Below, piece after piece: positions 27,460 through 43,013 of a DNA stretch of 64,000 nt (position 1 is its first letter; each line of letters begins with the position of its first letter). This stretch comes from Clostridia bacterium (GTDB lineage: Bacteria; Bacillota; Clostridia; Oscillospirales; CAG-272). Under the pieces are notes generated by a model. It was not told the origin of the DNA, did no database searches, and saw nothing but the letters and a program-made list of their open reading frames with translations. Where the stretch lies: positions 20,440 through 84,439 of the forward strand of contig JAGAMD010000008.1 in NCBI GenBank assembly GCA_017624905.1, in the 5' to 3' direction. Both the position numbers and the translations under genes were made by a program.

Positions 27460-29186
27460 TATACACCCTCCTTTTTAAATTGAGAGTTGTATATTTCACT
27501 ATAAACAAGACAACCGGAAAGTAACTCGTCGTGTTTACCAATGCCAACAATTTTGCCATCATCAAGCACAATAATCTTGTCAGCGTGAGAAATTGATGCT
27601 GTCCTTTGTGAAACTATAAATACAGTAGGCTTATAGTCAAGTGAATTTAATGATTTTCGTAGCCTTGCATCTGTTTGATAGTCAAGGGCAGAGGAGGAGT
27701 CGTCAAGAATTAGTATTTCAGGCTTTGAAACAAGTGCACGAGCAATAGTAAGCCTTTGTCTTTGTCCACCTGAGAGGTTTTTGCCACCCTCTTCAATCTG
27801 AAAGTCAAGCCCTTCCTTTTTAGCATCCAAAACATCCTTAGCCTGAGCTGTTTCAATAGCCTTTAATATGTCTTCATCACTAGCGGTTTTGTCGCCCCAT
27901 TTCATATTTTCACGGATTGTGCCCTTAAATAACACAGCCTTTTGTGGGACAACGCCTATTTTTTCACGCAAGGTCTCAAATTCATAGCTGTTTACATTTT
28001 GACCATTGACCAAAACCTCGCCAGACTCAGCATCGTAAAAGCGGCCAATTAGATTTACAAGAGAGGTTTTGCCCGAGCCTGTGCCACCGATGATGCCAAC
28101 AGTCTGTCCAGCCTTGACTGAAAAGTCAATATTTTCAAGTGAACATTCACTAGCTCCCTTGTACTTTAGTGATACATTTTTAAACTCAACGGAGTATCCG
28201 TTATTACTTGATTTTTTATCGCCCATAACCTCTTGTGAGGAGCTGATTTCAAACACGTCCTCAATTCTTTTTGCACAGGCAAGTGCTTTTGTAATAGTGA
28301 TTATAAGGTTAGCTAGCTTTATTAATTCTATAAGTATTTGCGACATATAATTATATAGAGCAATTACTTGTCCTTGTGTTAGCTCCCCAATTTGAACTCT
28401 TATAGCACCCTTGTAAATTAAAAAGCAAATAGAAATATTTACTATTGCAAAGGTTAAAGGATTGAGTAAGGCAGATATTCTGCCGACCAGCATTTGAGCC
28501 TTGTTTAACGCTGTTGTTTTTTTATGGAACTTGTCCTTTTCCTTTCCCTCAAGTGAAAAAGCACGAATAACACGTACGCCTGTTAAATTTTCACGTGTGG
28601 AAAGAAGAGTGGTGTCAAGTCTAGATTGTACCTTTTTGTATAGTGGAATTGTAATTAGCATAATGCCAAATACAACTAATGATAAAGCTAAAATAGTAAT
28701 GACAAAAATACCTGATGCCTTAAAGCTGGGGTCAACTATAATTGCCATAATAAGTGCACCAAAGACAATAACAGGTGAACGCATAAATAGGCGTAAGGTA
28801 AGGTTGATACCTGTTTGTACTTGGTTTGTGTCATTTGTCATTCTGTTGATAAGTGAGGATGTGCCCAAGGTATCAATTTCAGTATAGGAAAGAGAAGAAA
28901 TATGCTTAAACAATGAATGTCTTAATTTAGCAGAAAAGCCACAAGCAGCCTTTGCGGAAAAATACTGTGCAACGAGCGTACAGCTAAGACCAATAGCACC
29001 AAGGGCTACCATAAGTAAGCACATATAAACTACATAATTTTTGTCGCCGTTACCAATGCCCTTGTCAATGATACTTGCAACAACAAGAGGAACAAAAAGC
29101 TCAAAAAGAGCCTCAAGCATCTTGAATAGTGGCGCAAAAACGCATTCCTTTTTATAGCCATCTAAATAAACAAGCAGCTTTTTCAT
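27459..29186 (-). CDS. ABC exporter half-transporter (TMD-NBD), degenerate-site subunit
   Basis: Walker A GGTGSGKT, signature LSGGQ, Walker B ILILDDSSSALD (Asp replaces the catalytic Glu). There is a 1-nt overlap with the downstream partner. Confidence 0.9.
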   Translation of the reverse strand: MKKLLVYLDGYKKECVFAPLFKMLEALFELFVPLVVASIIDKGIGNGDKNYVVYMCLLMVALGAIGLSCTLVAQYFSAKAACGFSAKLRHSLFKHISSLSYTEIDTLGTSSLINRMTNDTNQVQTGINLTLRLFMRSPVIVFGALIMAIIVDPSFKASGIFVITILALSLVVFGIMLITIPLYKKVQSRLDTTLLSTRENLTGVRVIRAFSLEGKEKDKFHKKTTALNKAQMLVGRISALLNPLTFAIVNISICFLIYKGAIRVQIGELTQGQVIALYNYMSQILIELIKLANLIITITKALACAKRIEDVFEISSSQEVMGDKKSSNNGYSVEFKNVSLKYKGASECSLENIDFSVKAGQTVGIIGGTGSGKTSLVNLIGRFYDAESGEVLVNGQNVNSYEFETLREKIGVVPQKAVLFKGTIRENMKWGDKTASDEDILKAIETAQAKDVLDAKKEGLDFQIEEGGKNLSGGQRQRLTIARALVSKPEILILDDSSSALDYQTDARLRKSLNSLDYKPTVFIVSQRTASISHADKIIVLDDGKIVGIGKHDELLSGCLVYSEIYNSQFKKEGV

Positions 29187-29254
29187 ATTTTTCTCCTTTC
29201 CATATTATTTCAGCCTATATTATAGCACACAAAATTTTATATTACAATAATAAA

Positions 29255-29285
29255 ATAAAAAGAGTGCCGAAGCACTCTTTTTTAG
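29255..29285 (-). terminator. Rho-independent terminator of the 1307-aa LRR gene
   Basis: AGAGTGC/GCACTCT hairpin with T-runs on both sides. Confidence 0.75.
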
Positions 29286-29322
29286 TGATATGTCATTCTA
29301 AATAATGTGAAGAATTACATTG

Positions 29323-32300
29323 TTACCAAACAACAACCTCACCATCAACATAATGCCAATAATTGCCCTCGGTAGTAGGTTCTTCCTCACTGTACCAGTA
29401 AATTGGGCGAGATGAAGGATTCCATCTTGAATTCCAATCACTCGGCTTGCTTATAGCCTCGCAATAGATAGTGATGGCATTACAATATTTAAAAGCATAT
29501 TCACCTATGTCAGTAACGCTAACTGGAATTACAATACTTGTTAACTTACTACATGAGTAAAATGAATAATCGCCTATTGTCTTAATAGAGCTTGGTATTT
29601 CCATATTAACAAGTGAAGAATAATAAAAGGCATAATCTCCTATGCTTTCACACACAGAATCATTTTCAAAACAGACGCTTGTTATTTTAGGAGTAAATGA
29701 GGTATTACTGTAGGATGGGCAGAATAGGTACGCAGGAATCATTGTAACATTTTTACCAATGGTTACAGTTATACCGTTTCCGTTTTGTCCAGCTTTATTG
29801 AAAATATAATTTGTTTCAGTTAAATCGTCAAGCGAAATAACATTATATTTTATCTCGGTTAGCGATGTGCAGTTATTAAATGCAGAATTGCCGATTGATG
29901 TAATATTCTCAGAAATAGTTATGCTTTCAAGAGAAGTGCAGAATGTAAAAGCAGAAGAACAAATCATACTTGTGTTATCATTTATAATACAAGATGTTAT
30001 GGATTTGTCCTTGGCTTTTATTAGTGCAAGATATGGATTGTTGTTGGTACCCAAATAGTACGCATTATCATATTCATTGTATACCATATTTTCACAATTA
30101 AAAGCGGAAATGCCAAGGGTAACAATAGAATTTGGCAAAGTAATGCTTGTGAGTCCACATTGTGCGAAAGCCATATCGCCAATGTCTGTTACACTATTTG
30201 GAATTGATATGCTTGTAAGATTTGTACAGTTATAAAACGCATATTTTCCAATGCTTGTTAGTGAAGAATTATCTTCAAATTGAACATCAATGATTTTCGG
30301 TGTTGTGTCAGTTGTATTTGTATTGAATAGATTAGCAGGTATTCTTTCAACAGTATTTCCAACTATGACAGTTACGCCTGCGGCGTTTACTCCAAAGCTA
30401 GTAAAGGCCCAATTTGATAAATCCTCCATTGATATTGCGTTATAATATAGTTCTGTAACAGATGTACAATTGTCAAATGCGTTATTTCTAATTCTTTCTA
30501 TTTTACTTGGTATGTTTATACTTTTAATATTGGAGCAACCATAAAAAGCGTAACTAGATATATTTGTAACACTCTCTGGAAGTATTAGTTCTGTTATACA
30601 TGTGGCGTTTCTAAAAACATTTGTTTTAAGACTTGTAATTCCATTTGGTATTTTGAGGGTAGTAACAAGCACTTCGTTCAAATAAAGATTTTCACCATAT
30701 GAAAGAGGGTTTGAATTAGTGCCAAAAGATATATTGCACCAAGCTGTTAAATCTGTAATATATACTGCTTTTATGCTTGTACAATCTTTAAAAGCGTCAC
30801 CGTTAATACTTGTAATACTGCTTGGTATAGACACACTTGTTAGATTGAAGCAACCAGAAAAAGCCCCTGTGTTTATAGTTGTTACTCCATCAGGAATAAC
30901 TAATTCGGTGATAAGATTATCGTTTAAGTATAGGTTATGTGCATATTCTAAAGGATTTGATTCATTTTTGATAGCACACCAAGAGGCAAGGTCAGTTATA
31001 TGAACAGCACTTAAGCCTGAGCAACCGTCAAAAGCATAGTCGCTAATTGTGTTAATAGTACTTGGAAGAGATATACTTGTAATGCTTGAGCACTCAGCAA
31101 ACGCACCTCTTCCGATGCTTGTTATACCATTTGATAAGGATACACTTTTTAAATTAGTACAGCTCTTAAATGCATAATCGCTAATTTCTTTAATACTGCT
31201 TGGAATAGAAACGTTTGTAATGCTTGTACAACCTTGGAAAGCACATGCATTGATTGAAGATATATCATCACTAAATGTAAGGCTGGTTATTATATTATTG
31301 TTTAAATACAAATCTGCACCATAATAAAGAGGTGTTGCCCAAGAACCAAAAGATATGTTACACCAAGCCTTCAGATCTTCAATATACACTGATTTAATGT
31401 TCGTGCATGAGCCAAAAGCGTAATTTTCTATACGTGTTATAGCTGAATGAATAGAAATGCTTTCAAGATTTGCACAATTGTAAAATGTATATTCATTTAT
31501 GCTTGTTAAAGAACTTGGAATGCTAACATTTTTAAGATTTGAACAATTATAAAAAGCGTATTCACCTATATTGGTAATGCTATTTGGTATGTTAATACTT
31601 TCAAGCAGAGAGCAGTTGTAAAATGCGTATTTACCAATGCTTTGACAAGCAGAACCGTTTTCAAAAGTAACATTTATTAGCTTTGCTTCATGAGGGCTGG
31701 ACGCATTTGTAAATGGAGAGAATAAATAATCTGGGATTTTTGTTACATTCGCACCAATATTTACTGTTAAGCCGTCAGTGTCTTGTCCTGCAAGAACGAA
31801 AATTTTATTGCTATTACTTAAATTGTTTAAAGCAGGAATATTATAATTTATAACTGAAAGCATATAGCAATTGCTAAAGGCCTCTTTTCCTAATTCGGTT
31901 ATTGTTTCTGGCAATGTAAGGGTTGTAAGGTGAGTACATTTGTAAAAAGCACCTGCACCTATACTTGTTATACTCGATGGAAAATCAACATTTTCTAGTC
32001 CGTGACAGTTAGCAAAAGCATAGCTTTCGATGCTTGTAAGACTTGTTGGAAGTTCTATTTTAGATAGATTTTTACAAGATGCAAACGCAGCATTTCCAAT
32101 GCTTTCACAAACAGAGCCCTCCTCGAAAACAACTTCTGTTATATTGCAATAGTATGTGGTAGAGGTTTCGTTGTAGTGGGAGAGTGGAGAAAATAAATTA
32201 CTGGGGATTCTGGTAACGTTTTTTCCTATAGTTAGTTTGATTTCCGCTGTTTTATTTGAATTATAGAAAACATAGTTTGATGAATTTAGATTTTTCATAT

Positions 32301-33246
32301 TTGAGGCATTAAATTGTATGCTCTTAAGAGCACTACAACCAGAAAAAGCATAGTCCCCTATTGATACAACACTTTCTGGTATTGTAATACTTTCAAGGCT
32401 TGTACAGTTAGAAAATGAAGAACCACCAATGTGAAGCATTCCATTAAGCATAATAATGCTCTTAATATTTTTGCAATCATTAAAGGCACGAGAGTTGATT
32501 TTGGTGACGGGTAAACCTTTATATATATTTGGAATAACAATATCTATATCGTTGCAGTTACCTCTGCCTGTCACCTCATAATATGTACCGTCGCTACCTA
32601 GAGAGTATGAGAGTCCTTCGCTTGTTGCAACAGCGTCTCCACAAACTGTGCAAAAATAATTATTATATTTGTGCCCAAGAGCATCAACAGTTTCTTGCTC
32701 AACTATAATCTCGCCACAGACAGAGCACTTTGCACCCTCAGTAAGCCCAGCTTTAGTGCAAGTTGGTTCAACTGCGGGGATTATTTCATTGGTATGCCCA
32801 AGAGCATCAACAGTTTTTTGATCAACCAAAATTTCACCACAAATAGAGCATTTTTTACCCTCTGTTAGGCCTACTTTTGTGCAAGTAGGCTCGGTTGCAG
32901 TTATTATTATCTCAGTATGACCAAAAGCATCAACTACAGCTTGCTCAACCAAAATCTCGCCACATTCGGAGCACTTTTTGCCTTTGGTAAGACCTGCTTC
33001 TGTACAAGTGGGTTCAACAGCAGGTATAATTTCTTCTGTGTGCTCGTGCACAGGGATATCAGTGTTAGTGCTAGTATTGCTACCGGTAGCGGTATTCGTC
33101 TCATCATTTGTATCAGTATTTGTGCTTGTTTCGGTTTCGGTTATTGTACTAGTACCTGTATCTGTGTTTTTGTTACAACCGGTAACCATTGAGCAAATAA
33201 TTAGTGTTAAAACGATAAGAACAATGGAAATTAGTTTAGTTTTCAT
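29323..33246 (-). CDS. Giant (1307 aa) BspA-type leucine-rich-repeat surface lipoprotein with three N-terminal H/Cys4/H modules
   Basis: Lipobox MVTGC and a T/N/D-rich linker. Three 41-aa repeats (HTEEIIPAVEPTCTEAGLTKGKKCSECGEILVEQAVVDAFG). Dozens of LRR_5-type units (IP.S(V/I)T.IG.YAF..C..L.S). GGAGG SD. Confidence 0.85.
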   Translation of the reverse strand: MKTKLISIVLIVLTLIICSMVTGCNKNTDTGTSTITETETSTNTDTNDETNTATGSNTSTNTDIPVHEHTEEIIPAVEPTCTEAGLTKGKKCSECGEILVEQAVVDAFGHTEIIITATEPTCTKVGLTEGKKCSICGEILVDQKTVDALGHTNEIIPAVEPTCTKAGLTEGAKCSVCGEIIVEQETVDALGHKYNNYFCTVCGDAVATSEGLSYSLGSDGTYYEVTGRGNCNDIDIVIPNIYKGLPVTKINSRAFNDCKNIKSIIMLNGMLHIGGSSFSNCTSLESITIPESVVSIGDYAFSGCSALKSIQFNASNMKNLNSSNYVFYNSNKTAEIKLTIGKNVTRIPSNLFSPLSHYNETSTTYYCNITEVVFEEGSVCESIGNAAFASCKNLSKIELPTSLTSIESYAFANCHGLENVDFPSSITSIGAGAFYKCTHLTTLTLPETITELGKEAFSNCYMLSVINYNIPALNNLSNSNKIFVLAGQDTDGLTVNIGANVTKIPDYLFSPFTNASSPHEAKLINVTFENGSACQSIGKYAFYNCSLLESINIPNSITNIGEYAFYNCSNLKNVSIPSSLTSINEYTFYNCANLESISIHSAITRIENYAFGSCTNIKSVYIEDLKAWCNISFGSWATPLYYGADLYLNNNIITSLTFSDDISSINACAFQGCTSITNVSIPSSIKEISDYAFKSCTNLKSVSLSNGITSIGRGAFAECSSITSISLPSTINTISDYAFDGCSGLSAVHITDLASWCAIKNESNPLEYAHNLYLNDNLITELVIPDGVTTINTGAFSGCFNLTSVSIPSSITSINGDAFKDCTSIKAVYITDLTAWCNISFGTNSNPLSYGENLYLNEVLVTTLKIPNGITSLKTNVFRNATCITELILPESVTNISSYAFYGCSNIKSINIPSKIERIRNNAFDNCTSVTELYYNAISMEDLSNWAFTSFGVNAAGVTVIVGNTVERIPANLFNTNTTDTTPKIIDVQFEDNSSLTSIGKYAFYNCTNLTSISIPNSVTDIGDMAFAQCGLTSITLPNSIVTLGISAFNCENMVYNEYDNAYYLGTNNNPYLALIKAKDKSITSCIINDNTSMICSSAFTFCTSLESITISENITSIGNSAFNNCTSLTEIKYNVISLDDLTETNYIFNKAGQNGNGITVTIGKNVTMIPAYLFCPSYSNTSFTPKITSVCFENDSVCESIGDYAFYYSSLVNMEIPSSIKTIGDYSFYSCSKLTSIVIPVSVTDIGEYAFKYCNAITIYCEAISKPSDWNSRWNPSSRPIYWYSEEEPTTEGNYWHYVDGEVVVW
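32674..33042 (-). repeat. 3 x 123-bp in-frame tandem repeat inside the LRR gene
   Basis: Codons 69-191 form three consecutive 41-aa units. The periodicity is also visible in the spurious opposite-strand ORFs starting at 32671, 32794 and 32917. Confidence 0.9.
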
Positions 33247-33509
33247 AGTTCCTCCTTAATAAATTTTTATATAAATTAATAAATACTTATGTAAAAGCGA
33301 GTGTAATGGGATACATTTATATTGATCTCAAAACACTCGCTTACTTATTGCTATTTTGTTCAAAAATCAAGAATGGAGGTATAATTCTTGTTTGTGCTTT
33401 GAATATAAATAGCATCGCACACTACAAGTGCGTGACAATAGTCGTAAAATAACAAAAGGGTTGCTTTCGTTTAAAACGATTATATCACAATAGTATACAA
33501 AAAAGTGTA

Positions 33510-33593
33510 TTTGGGGACAATAAGTCGTTTTTAGGGATAAAAAGTTTGACACTCGATCCAAACATCCCTGAAATAATTACTTTTATCCCAAAA
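33510..33593. promoter_or_regulatory. Cluster of three TTTnGGGAyAAwAAGT-like boxes (two direct, one inverted); candidate LytTR operator
   Basis: TTTGGGGACAATAAGT (33510-33525) and TTTAGGGATAAAAAGT (33530-33545), 20 nt start to start. An inverted copy TTTTGGGATAAAAGTAA lies on the minus strand (33593-33577). The boxes flank TTGACA (33546-33551)-17-TGAAAT. Confidence 0.4.
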
Positions 33594-33595
33594 AG

Positions 33596-33624
33596 TTGAA
33601 TTATATGCTAAGTAGTGCTATAAT
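33596..33624 (+). promoter_or_regulatory. Sigma-A promoter of the LytTR two-component operon
   Basis: TTGAAT (33596-33601), 17 nt, TATAAT (33619-33624). GGGGGTG SD and ATG at 33649. Confidence 0.5.
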
Positions 33625-33648
33625 AAAAGCATTACAGGGGGTGATGAT

Positions 33649-34365
33649 ATGATTAATATTGCTATATGTGATGACAATCAAGAATTTGCACAGTTTTTTT
33701 ATCGAAAGATAAAGAGTTTATGCAATTCAGATTGTTCTGTATTACCCGCTTTCAATTCAGGTCTTGGTGTTATTGAATATTTAAAGCTCCACGCAATAGA
33801 TATTCTTTTTTTAGATATAGATATGCCAAGCATTAACGGCTTTGATTTAGCTAAAGTATTGTGCGAAAAATATTCCGATATAATTATTATTTTCGTTTCT
33901 TCATATGAAGATTTTGTCTATAGCTCTTTTGAATATTGTCCATTTAGATTTTTAAGAAAAACACACTTAAATGATGAGTTAGAAATTGCCTTAAGCAAGG
34001 CAATAGAAAAGATCGTTTTAAATGATAATAATATTTTGTTTGATACAACTGATGGACAAGTATCACTAAAGCCAAAGGATATTCTTTTCTTTGAAGGACA
34101 AAAGAATTATTACTACATATATACTGTCAATGGCAAATCATACAAATGTCGTGGAACTATGGAATCAGTGAATAATCTAATGGAAAAATACTATTTCTTT
34201 AGAATACACTCGGCTTATATAGTTAATTTTGAACACATAGAAAGCATTAATAACAAGGGCTTTCTTATTATGAAAAACAATCAATCGCTTAGCATTAGCA
34301 AAAAAAGGAAGAATGAATTTAAAAATGCGTATATGCAATTTATTAGAAAGAGGGTAACTAAATGA
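33649..34365 (+). CDS. LytR/AlgR-family response regulator (receiver + LytTR DNA-binding domain)
   Basis: Receiver domain (IAICDDN..., ILFLDIDMPSINGFDL) and a C-terminal LytTR domain (FFRIHSAYIVNFEHIESI). Confidence 0.9.
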   Translation: MINIAICDDNQEFAQFFYRKIKSLCNSDCSVLPAFNSGLGVIEYLKLHAIDILFLDIDMPSINGFDLAKVLCEKYSDIIIIFVSSYEDFVYSSFEYCPFRFLRKTHLNDELEIALSKAIEKIVLNDNNILFDTTDGQVSLKPKDILFFEGQKNYYYIYTVNGKSYKCRGTMESVNNLMEKYYFFRIHSAYIVNFEHIESINNKGFLIMKNNQSLSISKKRKNEFKNAYMQFIRKRVTK

Positions 34366-35663
34366 TTTTTATAGAATATCTAGTTTCTTTATTTGATACC
34401 TTCTTGTGTGTATATTTCATATCAAAATTTAATCATGCAAGCTTGTCTCCTAAAAAGAACAAATTTATTTTGCCGACTATTTTAGTTGTTTTTGCGTTTT
34501 CTGTAATTAATGACTTGTTTTTAAAGGGTTTTAATGTTTTAGGGACGATTATATTTTTGACGCTCTATATCATATATTCATTGCTAATTGCAAACAAAAA
34601 ATATGTGAGAGCTATTGTTTCCGCTTGCACCTTTGAAATTGTATATATTCTATTAAGTAGCATACTATATCTAATCATTAGCTCTTTAATTAAGGATTAC
34701 GACCAATTATCACAGGGAGCAGATGGGCTTTATAGATACATATATGTATTGATGCACAAAATCGCTTTGTTTGTTGTTTTAAAATTAATACTTATGGCTT
34801 TCAAATTAGACAATACAGTTGAAAGAAAACAGGGAATTATAGCTTTTATTTTCTCTTTTGTAACTATATTAGGACTTGGCTCTACTATGTATATTGCATC
34901 AAAAAGCTCAATTAAAAACATACAGATACAGGCTATATTGATTGCTTTGTCCTTTGCCTTTTGTAATGTTGCTCTTTATTTTTTGATATATCAAATGCAA
35001 AAATATCAGCAAAACAAATACGAATTAAAGCTTTTGCAGGATAAGATTAATTTTGAAGAAGCTAGGCACAATGATATAAACAACATTTGGTCTAACATTA
35101 ACAAAATCCAACACGATATAAAACAGCATTTAACAATTATTTCTGGATATATAGAAGATAACAAAATTACAGACTGTCAAAAATATATACAAGAATTGCT
35201 CCCAAATGTAGATGGCATAGGTAAACTAATCACATCAAAAAATACAGTTTTGGATTACTTGATCAACTCTAAGTTAACAGCATTACAGGATACCGAAATA
35301 GTTATTTCAGGCTCTATTGGCGATTTGTCCGATATAAAGGAGTCGGATTTGGTTTGCTTGATTGGAAATATTCTTGACAATGCTGTTGAAGCAATTCAAA
35401 ATTTAGAAACCAAGGATAATAAAAGAATAGAGCTTCTTTTTATGAAACAAAATTCTAATCGTATAATAATTTGCAAAAACACTATTAAAAAATCTGTTCT
35501 ACAGAATAACAAAGAGCTAAAAACAACAAAAAAATCAAAATCATCTCATGGTTATGGCACAAAGATAATTGCCAAAATCGTGTCTGATTATAATGGAATG
35601 ATTGACTATTTTGAGGAGTTCAATATGTTCGGTGTTCAAGTGGTCTTGCCCCAAAAACAATAA
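34362..35663 (+). CDS. AgrC-like GHKL sensor histidine kinase
   Basis: Polytopic N-terminus (~6 TM). H-box NKIQHDIKQHL, N-box LIGNILDNAVEA, G-box HGYGTKIIAKIV. ATGA overlap with the regulator gene. Confidence 0.85.
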   Translation: MIFIEYLVSLFDTFLCVYFISKFNHASLSPKKNKFILPTILVVFAFSVINDLFLKGFNVLGTIIFLTLYIIYSLLIANKKYVRAIVSACTFEIVYILLSSILYLIISSLIKDYDQLSQGADGLYRYIYVLMHKIALFVVLKLILMAFKLDNTVERKQGIIAFIFSFVTILGLGSTMYIASKSSIKNIQIQAILIALSFAFCNVALYFLIYQMQKYQQNKYELKLLQDKINFEEARHNDINNIWSNINKIQHDIKQHLTIISGYIEDNKITDCQKYIQELLPNVDGIGKLITSKNTVLDYLINSKLTALQDTEIVISGSIGDLSDIKESDLVCLIGNILDNAVEAIQNLETKDNKRIELLFMKQNSNRIIICKNTIKKSVLQNNKELKTTKKSKSSHGYGTKIIAKIVSDYNGMIDYFEEFNMFGVQVVLPQKQ

Positions 35664-35809
35664 AAAAGTGTCGCCCCAAGCAAGGAAGCGACACCTGTAA
35701 AAATGCACCTTCTCGCTTGTTGCTACACAATTACTCCCAAAAAAGTACGCAAAAAGGAAACACTTCTACCAATGGAGTGCTTTTTTGGGAATTATTAAAT
35801 TGTGTAGCA
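35662..35809 (-). ncRNA. Candidate ~150-nt small RNA (long hairpin plus intrinsic terminator); no known family assigned
   Basis: Own promoter (next feature). 13-bp stem 35798-35810/35720-35732 and 10-bp stem 35780-35789/35736-35745. Terminator stem 35668-35694, with two G.U pairs that form only on the minus strand, then U6 (35667-35662). No ATG-initiated ORF on this strand. Confidence 0.35.
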
Positions 35810-35814
35810 AACTT

Positions 35815-35843
35815 ATTTTAACACATATTTATTTAAAAGTCAA
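35815..35843 (-). promoter_or_regulatory. Near-consensus sigma-A promoter (extended -10) of the candidate sRNA
   Basis: Minus strand: TTGACT (35843-35838), 17 nt, TGtTAAAAT (-10 at 35820-35815). It lies directly downstream of the rnj terminator. Confidence 0.45.
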
Positions 35844-35851
35844 TATTAACC

Positions 35852-35884: not shown

Positions 35885-35920
35885 AATTTATTATAAATAC
35901 ATAAGTATAGGTAAACTAAA

Positions 35921-35990
35921 GCCTCCTTTGTGCAAAGGCACCCTTTAGGGCGTACCTTGTGTTGAGGTGTCTGCTTTGGCAGACGGAGGG
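35921..35990 (-). other. Structured element in the rnj 3' UTR (nested hairpins closed by CCUCC/GGAGG)
   Basis: Minus strand: CCCUCC-[GUCUGC-CAAA-GCAGAC]-[ACCU-7 nt-AGGU]-[GCCC-UAAA-GGGU]-[CCUUUG..CAAAGG]-AGG. It lies between the rnj stop (36028) and its terminator. Confidence 0.3.
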
Positions 35991-36027
35991 ATTGTATATT
36001 TATGATAGGAAAAACAAATTATTCTTT

Positions 36028-37893
36028 TTATAGATCCATCAAAATAGGTAAGATAACAGGCTTACGCTTAGTCTTTGTAAAAATGAATTTAGAAATTGCA
36101 TTTTTAACGACGTTTTTAAGCTCTCCCCAGTCCTTAATGCCCCCATCAAGTGCGTGTACAATTGCCTTAGTGGCGATTTCCTTCGTCTCGTTCATTAATT
36201 CCTCGTTTTCGCGAACATAAACAAATCCACGGGAAATAATTTCCGGTCCTGCCATTAAAATGCCTTCATTTAAGCTTACAGTTGCAACAGCAATAATAAG
36301 ACCACTTTCGGATAGGTTTTTCCTGTCTCTTAATACGATATTTCCGACATCACCAATTCCACTTCCGTCAATTAGCACCTTGCCGGCGGGAACCGTACCA
36401 TTAAATCTAGCACCCTCGGAGTCAATTTCAATTACCTTGCCAATATCGGACACAAAAATATTTTGTGGATCCATGCCCATACTTTCGGCAAGCTCCTTGT
36501 GCTGAATTAGATGTCTATATTCACCGTGAACAGGCATAAAGTATTTTGGCTTAACAAGAGCATGCATTAGCTTTAATTCCTCACGACATGCGTGTCCCGA
36601 AACGTGAACCTCAACGCTTGAATCGTGGTAAACATTAACTCCACGGCGATACATCTCATTTACAATCTTTCCAACAAGAGGCTCATTACCAGGGATTGCA
36701 CTAGAGGAAAGCACAACTAAATCCTTGTCAGTTAGCTGTACCTTGTCATGGTCGGAGAAAGCCATTCGGTAAAGAGCTGACATAGGCTCACCTTGGCTAC
36801 CGGTTGTAACTATTGTTAGCTTGTGTGGTGGATATTTTTTTATTTCATCAATGTCGATAAGTACACCCTGTGGCACATTCATATAGCCGAGCTTGACCGC
36901 CGCATTAACTACGTTAATCATACTACGACCGGTTACTGCCACCTTGCGACCGTGATTAACACTTGCATCTATAATTTGTTGCACCCTGTGTACGTTTGAG
37001 GCAAAGGTTGCTATTATAATTCGCTTGTCCTTCGCACCTAAAAATATTCTTTCAAGCGACACCCCAACATTTTTTTCTGATGGCGTATGTCCTTGTCTTT
37101 CTACGTTTGTAGATTCACAAAGAAGCATCAATACACCCTCACGGCCAAGCTGACCAAGGCGAACAATATCCATCATTTCACCATCAATAGGAGTAGTGTC
37201 CAGCTTAAAGTCTCCTGTGTGTACAATTACACCTTGTGGAGTAGTAATAGCAAGAGCACAAGCATCGGCAATTGAATGGTTTACACGAATAAATTCTACT
37301 TTAAAATTACCCGCGGAAATCTTATCACCAACATTTACATTGTGAAGCTTAGCGTTTTGTAGTAGCTTATGCTCATTTAACTTGTTTTCTAAAATTCCAA
37401 GGGTTAAGCGAGTGCCATAAACAGGCACATTCATATTTTTTAGAAAATATGGTAAAGAACCAATATGGTCCTCGTGTCCGTGAGTCAAAAAGATACCACG
37501 AACCTTTTCAATGTTATTTTGAATGTGTGTAAAATCAGGTATTACAAGGTCAACACCTAACATATCGTCGTTAGGGAAGCCAATTCCACAGTCAACGATA
37601 ATAATATCATTCTCACACTCAAACGCAGTGATGTTTTTTCCTATTTCGTTAAGTCCACCAAGTGAATAAACCTTTACAGCCGGCAATACCCTTTTAGGTG
37701 TTTGCTTTTTAGTACGCTTTTTAGTTGTGCTTTTAGTTGTTTGCATAGCTTTTGAGCTTTTAGAAGCTCCTTTGACCTGCTGAACAGGCATTTTCGACCC
37801 AGTATCCTGCTTTTTTGAAGTGCGTACATTACTTCTTTTTACTTTTTTTGGCTCACCCTTGCTTGGAGTGGCAACATTCTTTTTTTCTTTCAT
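36028..37893 (-). CDS. rnj: Ribonuclease J with a ~75-aa lysine-rich N-terminal extension
   Basis: Metallo-beta-lactamase/beta-CASP motifs (LGGLNEIGKN, HGHEDHIG) plus an RNase J C-terminal domain. AAGGAGA SD before the first ATG. Confidence 0.9.
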   Translation of the reverse strand: MKEKKNVATPSKGEPKKVKRSNVRTSKKQDTGSKMPVQQVKGASKSSKAMQTTKSTTKKRTKKQTPKRVLPAVKVYSLGGLNEIGKNITAFECENDIIIVDCGIGFPNDDMLGVDLVIPDFTHIQNNIEKVRGIFLTHGHEDHIGSLPYFLKNMNVPVYGTRLTLGILENKLNEHKLLQNAKLHNVNVGDKISAGNFKVEFIRVNHSIADACALAITTPQGVIVHTGDFKLDTTPIDGEMMDIVRLGQLGREGVLMLLCESTNVERQGHTPSEKNVGVSLERIFLGAKDKRIIIATFASNVHRVQQIIDASVNHGRKVAVTGRSMINVVNAAVKLGYMNVPQGVLIDIDEIKKYPPHKLTIVTTGSQGEPMSALYRMAFSDHDKVQLTDKDLVVLSSSAIPGNEPLVGKIVNEMYRRGVNVYHDSSVEVHVSGHACREELKLMHALVKPKYFMPVHGEYRHLIQHKELAESMGMDPQNIFVSDIGKVIEIDSEGARFNGTVPAGKVLIDGSGIGDVGNIVLRDRKNLSESGLIIAVATVSLNEGILMAGPEIISRGFVYVRENEELMNETKEIATKAIVHALDGGIKDWGELKNVVKNAISKFIFTKTKRKPVILPILMDL

Positions 37894-42167: not shown

Positions 42168-43013
42168 ATGAAAAATTTGGGATATTATAACGGCAATATA
42201 GGACTAATTGATGAAATTAGTGCACCTATTACGGACAGGGCGTTTTACTTCGGAGACGGGGTTTATGATGCGGTCATGTGCCGAAATAATATCCCATATC
42301 TTTTATCTCATCATATAAACAGAATATATAAAAACGCATCTCTTTTAAGTATAGCTCCGCCAAATACAAAGGAAGAGCTTTCTCTGCTCATAAAAGAACT
42401 GGTAAAGAGAGTAGATGGCGAGGAAAAATTTGTATATTTTCACATTTCTCGTGGTAGCGGAATTAGAAATCACGAGTTTACTAATACAAAGGGAAATCTT
42501 TGTATAATGATAAAGCCTCAAAAAATAGAAAATGTATATGAAAAAATGGATGTATGCACTACAAAGGACATTCGCTTTCAAATGTGTAATATAAAAACAC
42601 TAAACCTAATTCCAAGTGTTTTGTGTGCTCAACATGCCAAAAATAACAAATGTGAAGAAAGCGTTTTTGTCCGTGATGGTTATGTTACAGAATGCTCTCA
42701 TAGTAACATTTCAATTTTGAAAAACGGTAAGCTGATAACCGCTCCTGCCGATTGCCATATTTTGCCGGGTGTTACTCGAGCAAATTTAATATCAGTCGCT
42801 CAAAAGAACAATATTGAGGTGATAGAGAAAAGGTATACACTTGCTGAACTAATAGATGCCGACGAAATAATAGTAACAAGCTCCTCTAAAATGGCAAAGG
42901 GCGTAAAAACAGTTGATGGAAAAGTAGTCGGTGGCAAGGACGAAAACACCTTAAAGCTACTTCAAGATGAAATCTATTTTGACTATATAAATACAACAAA
43001 TATACATTTATAA
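42168..43013 (+). CDS. dat: D-amino-acid (D-alanine) aminotransferase, fold-type IV
   Basis: Fold-IV motifs (FYFGDGVYD, IKTLNLIPSVL with the catalytic Lys, YVTECSHSNISILKNGKLITAP, ILPGVTR). GGAGG SD before MKNLGY. Confidence 0.8.
   Translation: MKNLGYYNGNIGLIDEISAPITDRAFYFGDGVYDAVMCRNNIPYLLSHHINRIYKNASLLSIAPPNTKEELSLLIKELVKRVDGEEKFVYFHISRGSGIRNHEFTNTKGNLCIMIKPQKIENVYEKMDVCTTKDIRFQMCNIKTLNLIPSVLCAQHAKNNKCEESVFVRDGYVTECSHSNISILKNGKLITAPADCHILPGVTRANLISVAQKNNIEVIEKRYTLAELIDADEIIVTSSSKMAKGVKTVDGKVVGGKDENTLKLLQDEIYFDYINTTNIHL

Follow-up and report, generated by a model that had tools for sequence, protein, structure and literature searches.

We analysed a 64,000-nt stretch, hereafter the window, from an uncultured, Oscillospiraceae-like gut bacterium of the Clostridia (Oscillospirales, CAG-272; GenBank assembly GCA_017624905.1, contig JAGAMD010000008.1, positions 20,440 to 84,439 of the forward strand), and in it a non-coding transcription unit on the minus strand at 35659-35843. 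The unit lies in the 364-bp gap between two convergent genes, one encoding a GHKL histidine kinase (34362-35663, plus strand) and the other RNase J (rnj, 36028-37893, minus strand). The kinase gene is preceded on its own strand by a LytTR response regulator gene (33649-34365), both being assigned by Pfam, and beyond the regulator, 2.4 kb downstream of the unit and on the same strand as the unit, is the gene for a 1307-aa BspA-type leucine-rich repeat (LRR) lipoprotein (29323-33246, minus strand; Pfam LRR_5). On its upstream side the unit is bounded by the intrinsic terminator of rnj, located by a terminator scan as a stem-loop at 35884-35859 (minus strand) followed by T7. A first-pass annotation made from the sequence alone had proposed that the gap holds an independent small RNA (sRNA) gene accompanying the LytTR system.

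The unit opens with a promoter at 35815-35843 (minus strand), composed of a -35 element TTGACT (35843-35838), a 17-nt spacer and an extended -10 element TGtTAAAAT (35823-35815); the TTGACT-17-TAAAAT core matches the consensus at 10 of 12 positions and is supplemented by the upstream TG. Promoter-like sites occur in this AT-rich region at chance frequency (22 observed, 21.7 expected), so we credit the promoter because it is conserved in the relatives described below: it is near-invariant in L025 and L026, and in L019 it reads TTGACA-17-TGgTAAAAT at the same distance from the first stem as in the window. The most plausible transcription start is G35808, the first G of GCUACAC.

The promoter is followed by a hairpin spanning 91 nt, with 65 bp between its outer repeats. 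Its outer stem, P1, is a perfect 13-bp helix between UUGCUACACAAUU (35798-35810) and AAUUGUGUAGCAA (35720-35732), and the second stem, P2, pairs another 13 bp between AUUCCCAAAAAAG (35780-35792) and CUUUUUUGGGAGU (35733-35745); the inner arms (35729-35748 and 35777-35796) contain the perfect 10-mer CCCAAAAAAG/CTTTTTTGGG. The apical region (35746-35779) consists of a short stem P3 (CACU/AGUG) and, on its 3′ side, the CU-rich unpaired stretch UUUCCUUUUUGC (35760-35749). The minus strand folds at -52.8 kcal/mol (z = -5.5), a value reached by none of 200 shuffles. A linker, CAAGCGAGAAGGUGCAUUUUUAC (35697-35719), connects the hairpin to a second intrinsic terminator (35662-35696), whose 5′ arm (35696-35684), loop (35683-35678) and 3′ arm (35677-35666) form 12 pairs over 35696-35666 and lead into U6 (35667-35662), abutting the kinase stop codon (35661-35663). 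This terminator is stronger on the minus strand than on the plus strand (-17.3 versus -12.8 kcal/mol) because two of its G.U pairs exist only in the minus-strand RNA, and on the plus strand the hairpin at 35666-35696 has no U-tract. It is identical in L026 and carries one substitution in L025.

Much of this architecture had been seen by the first-pass annotation: both terminators, the second with its two strand-specific G.U pairs and its U6 ending at the kinase stop codon, the promoter, the perfect 13-bp and 10-bp arms and the exposed CU-rich stretch are all present as it described, and only the span of the palindrome, given there as 94 nt, needs correcting. Reading the sequence confirmed that the predicted RNA contains no AUG. 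Two leader peptides were considered and rejected, one reading UUG-GUA-GAA... for 13 codons in the window only and the other in a GUG frame overlapping, in L025 and L026, with the ATG; both lack a ribosome-binding site, and the start of neither is conserved. The annotation had also recognised no known RNA family, and the Rfam 15 scan agrees: the best miRNA and sRNA models score 19-24 bits over the element against gathering scores of 70-211, the relatives likewise fall below threshold, and the whole window at the gathering threshold yields one tRNA only. The hairpin occurs once in the 64-kb window and is not repeated in 280 kb of related loci. Blastn searches of plasmids and phages and two pattern scans of IMG/VR returned no match to the unit; scans of JGI metagenome contigs for exact matches to a hairpin arm and to the conserved linker were also empty, although these missed the window's own species as well. 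Two further resemblances were dropped, namely an inverted repeat with a TTTGGGA motif at 42168-42306, which lies inside an aminotransferase open reading frame (ORF), and a likeness to integron attC sites, for which the core sites are missing.

The probable identity of the unit follows from its homologues. The family comprises four distinct sequences, all from metagenome assemblies: those of the window, of L025 (NCBI GCA_052836005.1), of L026 (one species represented by three ENA samples, L026-L028) and of L019. In the two species L025 and L026-L028, RNase J is 88% identical to that of the window, and rnj is followed by its terminator and then by promoter, hairpin, linker and terminator as in the window. 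There, however, the terminator is succeeded by UUUGGAGGAAAAUAUG and an LRR lipoprotein ORF, with the GGAGG-ATG within 4 nt of the U-tract. The unit thus lies between a promoter and a start codon on the same strand in both species, whereas in the window the regulator and kinase genes intervene. The ORF behind it encodes a BspA-type LRR protein that starts with a lipoprotein signal peptide. It shares with the window's 1307-aa protein an N-terminal arrangement of common signal peptide, T/D/S-rich linker and EEIIPAVxPTCTE module, and their LRR parts are 39-40% identical, which by sequence makes it a homologue of the window gene at 29323-33246. The first-pass proposal of an independent sRNA gene therefore stands in part: the unit is conserved, structured and non-coding and has its own promoter and terminator, but it is not stand-alone by origin, being the leader of an LRR gene in L025 and L026-L028.

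Gene callers hide this leader, and we regard the effect as an annotation artefact: the frame through the terminator and linker happens to be open, so the LRR ORF is over-extended in L028 (3492-4802; 436 instead of 409 aa) and in L025 (7051-9381; a 776-aa ORF with a GTG start instead of 749 aa). A search with the L026 LRR protein was swamped by repeat-driven matches. One candidate, P0336, was chosen for an N-terminal extension resembling a translated terminator and was set aside, as it has only a homologous promoter and Shine-Dalgarno region and lacks the hairpin and terminator.

The sequence differences among the leaders bear the mark of selection on RNA pairing. Over aligned positions the three full leaders are 90-93% identical, compared with 82-83% for the adjacent rnj coding sequence, and the differences fall nearly all in P2. 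In P1, a U-A pair of the window is replaced by C-G in both L025 and L026. The P1 of L019, UUGCUACACAAAC/GUUUGUGUAGCAA, has UU/AA changed to AC/GU, which adds two more positions changed on both sides and brings the total for this stem to three. P2 exists as four unrelated sequences, each pairing with its own 3′ arm (AUUCCCAAAAAAG; UAUCCACG..GAAAG; UAUUUUCGUGAAAAA; UUCUCAUCAAUGG). The pairs of P2 and of L019 were compared from individual folds because the MAFFT alignment is unreliable there; RNAalifold run on that alignment missed P1 and P2 owing to misaligned indels in P2, and MAFFT also split the P1 of L019. Each hairpin contains two to four G.U pairs that would be A.C mismatches if read on the other strand, and the leader strand is the more stable hairpin strand in three of the four species; the palindrome of the window folds at -34.3 kcal/mol on the plus strand and -33.2 kcal/mol on the minus strand. 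The CU-rich unpaired stretch 3′ of the apex is common to all four copies, including L019. Together these observations are good evidence that the hairpin has been selected as RNA on the minus strand, although four sequences are too few for a formal significance test. The stem covariation that the first-pass annotation had proposed as a check is thus found, in compensatory changes in P1 and in P2 pairing kept across four species.

The point at which the window departs from its relatives can be placed to the nucleotide. Window and uninterrupted leaders (L025 and L026) remain homologous up to 35659 (junction 35658-35659), where the window reads CUUUUUUAUU followed across the junction by G and the uninterrupted leaders read CUUUUUUAUUUGGAGG. 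The last codon and TAA of the kinase gene (35658-35663) overlap the leader's UUUUUUAUU tail and, because leader homology runs to 35659, are made of leader sequence. In keeping with this, the kinase has 433 aa and ends in LPQKQ, compared with homologues of 436-442 aa that end in LPE and two to seven further residues, and it lacks the bidirectional terminator found after the kinase in relatives. The hexamer TTTATT flanks the insert on both sides, at the leader end and before the LRR ribosome-binding site (33258-33263, plus strand). The inserted cassette (33471-35663, plus strand) comprises the response regulator (RR) and histidine kinase (HK) genes, a box region and a divergent promoter, and homology to other such cassettes reaches left to about 33471. 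No homologue of the remaining part of the insert, 33264-33470, was present in any locus fetched. This part holds a hairpin with a 10-bp stem (33295-33342; AAGCGAGTGT...ACACTCGCTT) just upstream of the LRR ribosome-binding site, and a 48-aa plus-strand ORF (33306-33452) whose internal NGG faintly recalls a double-glycine leader.

The RR-HK pair behaves elsewhere as a movable cassette. The kinase's best GTDB relatives are metagenome-assembled genomes (MAGs) at 56-69% identity, and 12 GTDB loci together with contigs carrying kinases at 94, 81 and 75% identity have the same pair. We regard it as movable because its neighbours differ each time and include a sigma factor with AbiEii, clpX-clpP-tig and others (L001-L012, L017, L019, L021, L022). 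In these relatives nothing beyond the kinase stop codon resembles the window; unrelated DNA follows, usually with a compact bidirectional terminator, and no leader-like element lies after or beside the kinase in L001-L012, L017, L021 or L022. Conversely, L025 and L026 have the leader without any LytTR system. The leader itself is therefore no part of the cassette, and the view of it as a companion of the LytTR system fails at the 12 GTDB loci and the three closer kinase relatives, all without the unit, as well as in the two species that have the unit without the system. Contigs of the window's own species are uninformative in this respect, since they are 100% identical here.

L019 is a special case. 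Its diverged fourth copy of the leader was found with a covariance model built from the other three sequences (33.7 bits, E about 4e-5) and sits beside another RR-HK cassette in an arrangement different from that of the window, with the divergent LytTR-box promoter of that cassette about 75 nt upstream of the copy. Because the cassette is upstream of the leader there, its divergent promoter reads through the leader, a caveat that keeps a link between leader and LytTR system open. After the kinase, L019 (2400-2870) and L020 (1477-1747) also have a non-coding stretch of about 450 nt, in which AT-rich palindromes recur (aaaacaattaaatattgtttt) and another part is richer in GC and looks structured; it matches no Rfam family at threshold.

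Leader and LRR gene belong to a variable island, since the closest rnj relatives have neither of them. In close RNase J relatives (L023, L029, L030, L032) an ABC-transporter gene pair comes straight after rnj, and three more RNase J look-ups gave loci without the element or an incomplete contig. From the uninterrupted arrangement in L025 and L026 and the homology of the LRR genes, the ancestral order by sequence comparison is rnj, leader, LRR gene, ABC transporter, from which the window differs by the RR-HK cassette between leader and LRR gene. We conclude that 35659-35843 (minus strand) is probably the orphaned 5′ leader of the BspA-type LRR gene at 29323-33246, its cognate gene, split off by insertion of an RR-HK cassette of about 2.4 kb. 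The leaders form a new, narrowly distributed family that is not one of the Rfam families.

Further features of the region were noted. The rnj terminator is kept after rnj in L025, L026 and L030. Between the rnj stop codon and its terminator in the window (35885-36027, minus strand) are about 140 nt of small GC-rich hairpins, ending in a relic of the last ~24 nt of rnj (about 35890-35914) that is 96% identical to the true rnj 3′ end in L025, L026 and L030. The stretch resembles a short piece of DNA inserted into the rnj end; a related version is present in L032 and none in L025, L026, L029, L030 or L031. The leader promoter (35815-35850) and the ABC-transporter promoter (29200-29240; L030 5925-5975) have a similar layout, ATATTG...TGTGnTAWAAT, and in genomes without the island the ABC promoter occupies the place of the leader promoter after the rnj terminator. 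Short hairpin modules, ctctactcatccg...ccaccttccctgctagggaaggc and ccctcagtc...gacagctccc, are repeated in L023 (6900-7250), L029 (6960-7080), L032 (5990-6140), L025 (9381-10158) and L026 (8340-8480), upstream of the ABC-transporter genes and, in L025, several times after the LRR gene. They look like a REP-like dispersed repeat family and are absent at the corresponding spot of the window (about 29150-29320).

The leader contains a set of overlapping helices of the kind expected of a transcription attenuator. RNAalifold exposed a 19-bp complementarity between the apical region and the linker, which we call H-alt: GUAGAAGUGU-UU-CCUUUUUGC (35769-35749) pairs with GCGAGAAGG-U-GCAUUUUUAC (35716-35697). 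The duplex is worth about -23.5 kcal/mol in the three species, with z between -4.8 and -5.2, and 500 shuffles gave no equal. Pairing survives the three substitutions that fall within the duplex, which is weak evidence because they are transitions converting to or from G.U pairs. The 5′ part of the linker, CAAGCGAG (35719-35712), can instead form an antiterminator with CUUGCUUG (35684-35677), that is, with the end of the terminator 5′ arm, the loop and the first G of the 3′ arm; an inner stem uses the remainder of the 5′ arm. This duplex has -18.9 kcal/mol (z = -3.3), equalled by 1 of 500 shuffles. The hairpin with the antiterminator and the hairpin with the terminator differ by no more than 0.5 kcal/mol in the window and L026, and in L025 the terminator state is better by 2.4 kcal/mol. 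When prefixes of increasing length are folded, the hairpin appears first, and the antiterminator is in place before the terminator 3′ arm has been made. The leader can thus be divided into five consecutive segments with the pairings 1:2, 2:3, 3:4 and 4:5, and it possesses in silico both a terminator with a competing antiterminator and a structured sensor domain with covariation, the latter across four sequences.

In its native setting, a strong sigma-70-type promoter would start the RNA at or beside the base of the P1-P2-P3 hairpin, and the mutually exclusive helices (hairpin, H-alt, antiterminator and terminator) would decide whether transcription stops 4 nt before the ribosome-binding site. 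A closed hairpin would leave the linker free to form the antiterminator before the terminator 3′ arm is made, favouring read-through. If segment 1, which comprises the hairpin's 5′ half with the conserved P1 strand, were kept from pairing, the apical half could capture the linker and allow the terminator to form. In this model the naked leader RNA tends to read through, and a factor that blocks segment 1 would trigger 2:3 and 4:5 pairing and hence termination. The gene neighbourhood yielded no candidate ligand, protein or RNA effector. We hold this mechanism with less confidence than the identity and origin of the leader.

Control of the LRR gene in the window appears to have been rewired by the insertion. 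Phylogenetic footprinting identified four GGGAYA boxes upstream of the regulator that are kept in most cassette homologues, at 33514-33519 and 33534-33539 on the plus strand and at 33564-33569 and 33584-33589 on the minus strand. They form direct repeats about 20-21 nt apart, two per strand, and are probably LytTR binding sites. They are flanked by the regulator promoter (TTGAAT-17-TATAAT, 33596-33624) and, on the minus strand, by a divergent promoter, TGaTATAAT (-10 at 33484-33479), that points at the LRR gene, a layout common to most cassettes examined. Given these boxes and a divergent promoter aimed at the LRR gene, this gene has probably been switched from leader control to LytTR control or been supplemented by it. 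The divergent partner genes of other cassettes are varied and encode mostly membrane proteins and lipoproteins, and a functional link between the two-component system and envelope genes is therefore plausible. As the leader of the window is intact, its transcription is expected; the product would be an RNA of about 145 nt ending at about 35662 or a read-through transcript antisense to both genes of the two-component system; on the minus strand, the scan for promoters and terminators places the next terminator-like site only at 33432.

Some observations weigh against the interpretation of the unit as an orphaned attenuator leader. The family consists of only four distinct, metagenome-derived sequences, and the L019 copy is cut by the contig end after P1. 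The linker, antiterminator and terminator lack covariation support because their sequences are nearly invariant, leaving energy and shuffle statistics. The state combining H-alt and terminator is 9-12 kcal/mol less stable than the closed-hairpin state and so, in the model, needs a factor or a kinetic route. Nor is the leader essential to the LRR gene family: in the more distant MAG L033 (880-1010) an LRR lipoprotein gene has a homologous promoter, TTGACA-17-TGaTAAAAT, a similar Shine-Dalgarno region and a leader of about 80 nt with no hairpin and no terminator, which makes the attenuator a lineage-specific feature. One part of the insert, 33264-33470, has no homologue among the loci fetched, which leaves a gap in the insertion history. 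Finally, the window copy is fully intact and could have acquired a function of its own.

This last point leads to the idea that the unit is, or has become, a trans-acting sRNA of about 145 nt whose CU loop would target Shine-Dalgarno sequences, the one on the LRR lipoprotein mRNA perhaps among them. An intact promoter and a strong terminator that are not followed by a gene on the minus strand, the lack of an AUG and the lack of decay relative to functional leaders are what such a gene would show; the CU loop pairs with the LRR ribosome-binding site of the window at -9.8 kcal/mol, and leaders that act in trans have precedent (bioRxiv 10.1101/2024.05.28.596223; PMC6096418). The far better partner of the CU loop, however, is the leader's own linker (-23.5 kcal/mol), and pairing with GGAGG is generic. 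Intactness may only reflect a recent insertion, as the contigs of the species are 100% identical here, and no independent stand-alone copy is present among the known copies, which makes this role rather unlikely. It is slightly more doubtful still that the detached leader remains a working switch whose read-through transcript is antisense to kinase and regulator and continues into the LRR gene in the manner of an excludon. If it were, a single RNA decision would turn the surface protein up and the two-component system down, the LRR gene would receive a second, independent input from the divergent LytTR-box promoter of the cassette, and the sensor domain would represent a new riboswitch or protein-binding leader class of BspA-type lipoproteins in gut Clostridia. 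A passive role as the only one remaining, with the two hairpins insulating or terminating the convergent kinase and rnj transcripts, is unlikely. The kinase has indeed lost the bidirectional terminator of its relatives, the palindrome folds as stably on the plus strand as on the minus strand (the -34.3 and -33.2 kcal/mol given above), and on the plus strand it is followed after 35810 by a U-rich tail, ACUUAUUUU; yet the hairpin at 35666-35696 has no plus-strand U-tract, a 91-nt hairpin is atypical of intrinsic terminators and the conserved promoter would go unexplained. Insulation is compatible with an orphaned leader and does not replace it.

Two further proposals of the first-pass annotation fare worse. 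The RNA was suggested to be an RNAIII-like effector of the adjacent LytTR system, and the unit does adjoin the kinase gene, while the L019 copy, about 75 nt downstream of a divergent LytTR-box promoter, recalls the geometry of agr P2/P3. In the window, however, the unit converges on the kinase from a sigma-70 consensus promoter with no GGGAYA boxes upstream, the L019 copy retains its own promoter, and no copy scores above 11.3 bits with the Rfam RNAIII model, whose gathering score is 47. With L025 and L026 carrying the unit without the system and at least 13 related cassettes lacking the unit, this proposal is largely refuted by distribution, and we consider it very improbable. We judge it equally far-fetched that the palindrome acts as DNA, either as an operator, for example of the LytTR regulator, or as a mobile or recombination element such as a miniature inverted-repeat transposable element (MITE), repetitive extragenic palindrome (REP), insertion sequence (IS) end or invertible switch. 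Its inverted repeats are long and nearly perfect, it sits at the edge of a variable island, and TTTTTTGGGA is found in both arms, the 16-nt box pattern having 6 matches in the window where 1.1 are expected. The arm motifs, however, are GGGAAT and GGGAGT in inverted orientation about 37 nt apart rather than GGGAYA direct repeats, and they are absent from the arms of L025, L026 and L019. A known repeat or IS end, which the annotation itself had named as a refuting finding, is not supported, given that the element is unique within the window and not repeated in 280 kb of related loci and that the plasmid, phage, IMG/VR and JGI searches were empty; the repeats do not enclose the promoter, all contigs of the four species show one and the same orientation, and the G.U asymmetry points to RNA.

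As an orphaned leader, the unit adds an unclassified candidate cis-regulatory RNA family in front of BspA-type LRR surface lipoproteins. These proteins are abundant in gut Clostridia, and we know of no described regulation for them. The locus also displays regulatory rewiring at single-nucleotide resolution, with a mobile sensor-kinase cassette and its divergent promoter placed between an attenuator and its gene. For sRNA prediction it is a caution, as what looks like an sRNA gene, with promoter and terminator but no ORF, can be a leader that has been cut off from its gene. Should read-through take place, one could study here, in a natural setting, how a two-component system and its likely target are coupled through antisense transcription.

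Among known systems, RNAIII of the S. aureus agr P2-P3 region resembles the unit as a structured RNA beside a LytTR-type system; in L019 the copy is downstream of a divergent LytTR-box promoter. The leader unit is not homologous to it, has its own constitutive-type promoter and is convergent in the window, and leader and LytTR system each occur without the other. In the excludons of Listeria, a long antisense transcript represses one operon while acting as mRNA for its neighbour (PMC3377988). Read-through from the leader would likewise be antisense to kinase and regulator before entering the same-strand LRR gene, but at the window locus this is a purely geometric possibility, with weak terminator-like hairpins intervening at 33432-33416 and 33342-33295. 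The Listeria riboswitch leaders SreA and SreB also act in trans as sRNAs (bioRxiv 10.1101/2024.05.28.596223; PMC6096418). The leader unit is similarly a promoter-proximal structured RNA ending at an intrinsic terminator, from which a short transcript would accumulate; SreA and SreB are attached to operons and have SAM (S-adenosylmethionine) as ligand, whereas the window leader is detached and its trans target hypothetical. A further parallel is with Firmicute attenuator leaders (pyr/PyrR, trp-type and riboswitch platforms), which share the promoter, structured 5′ domain, exclusive helices and terminator near the ribosome-binding site. In the pyr leader, anti-antiterminator, antiterminator and terminator follow a nested logic that the leader unit resembles. 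It differs from these systems in having no Rfam similarity (20 bits for the PyrR model, whose gathering score is 54), no conserved leader peptide and, in the window, no gene in cis, and it has an extra layer in which the closed hairpin sequesters the anti-antiterminator strand.

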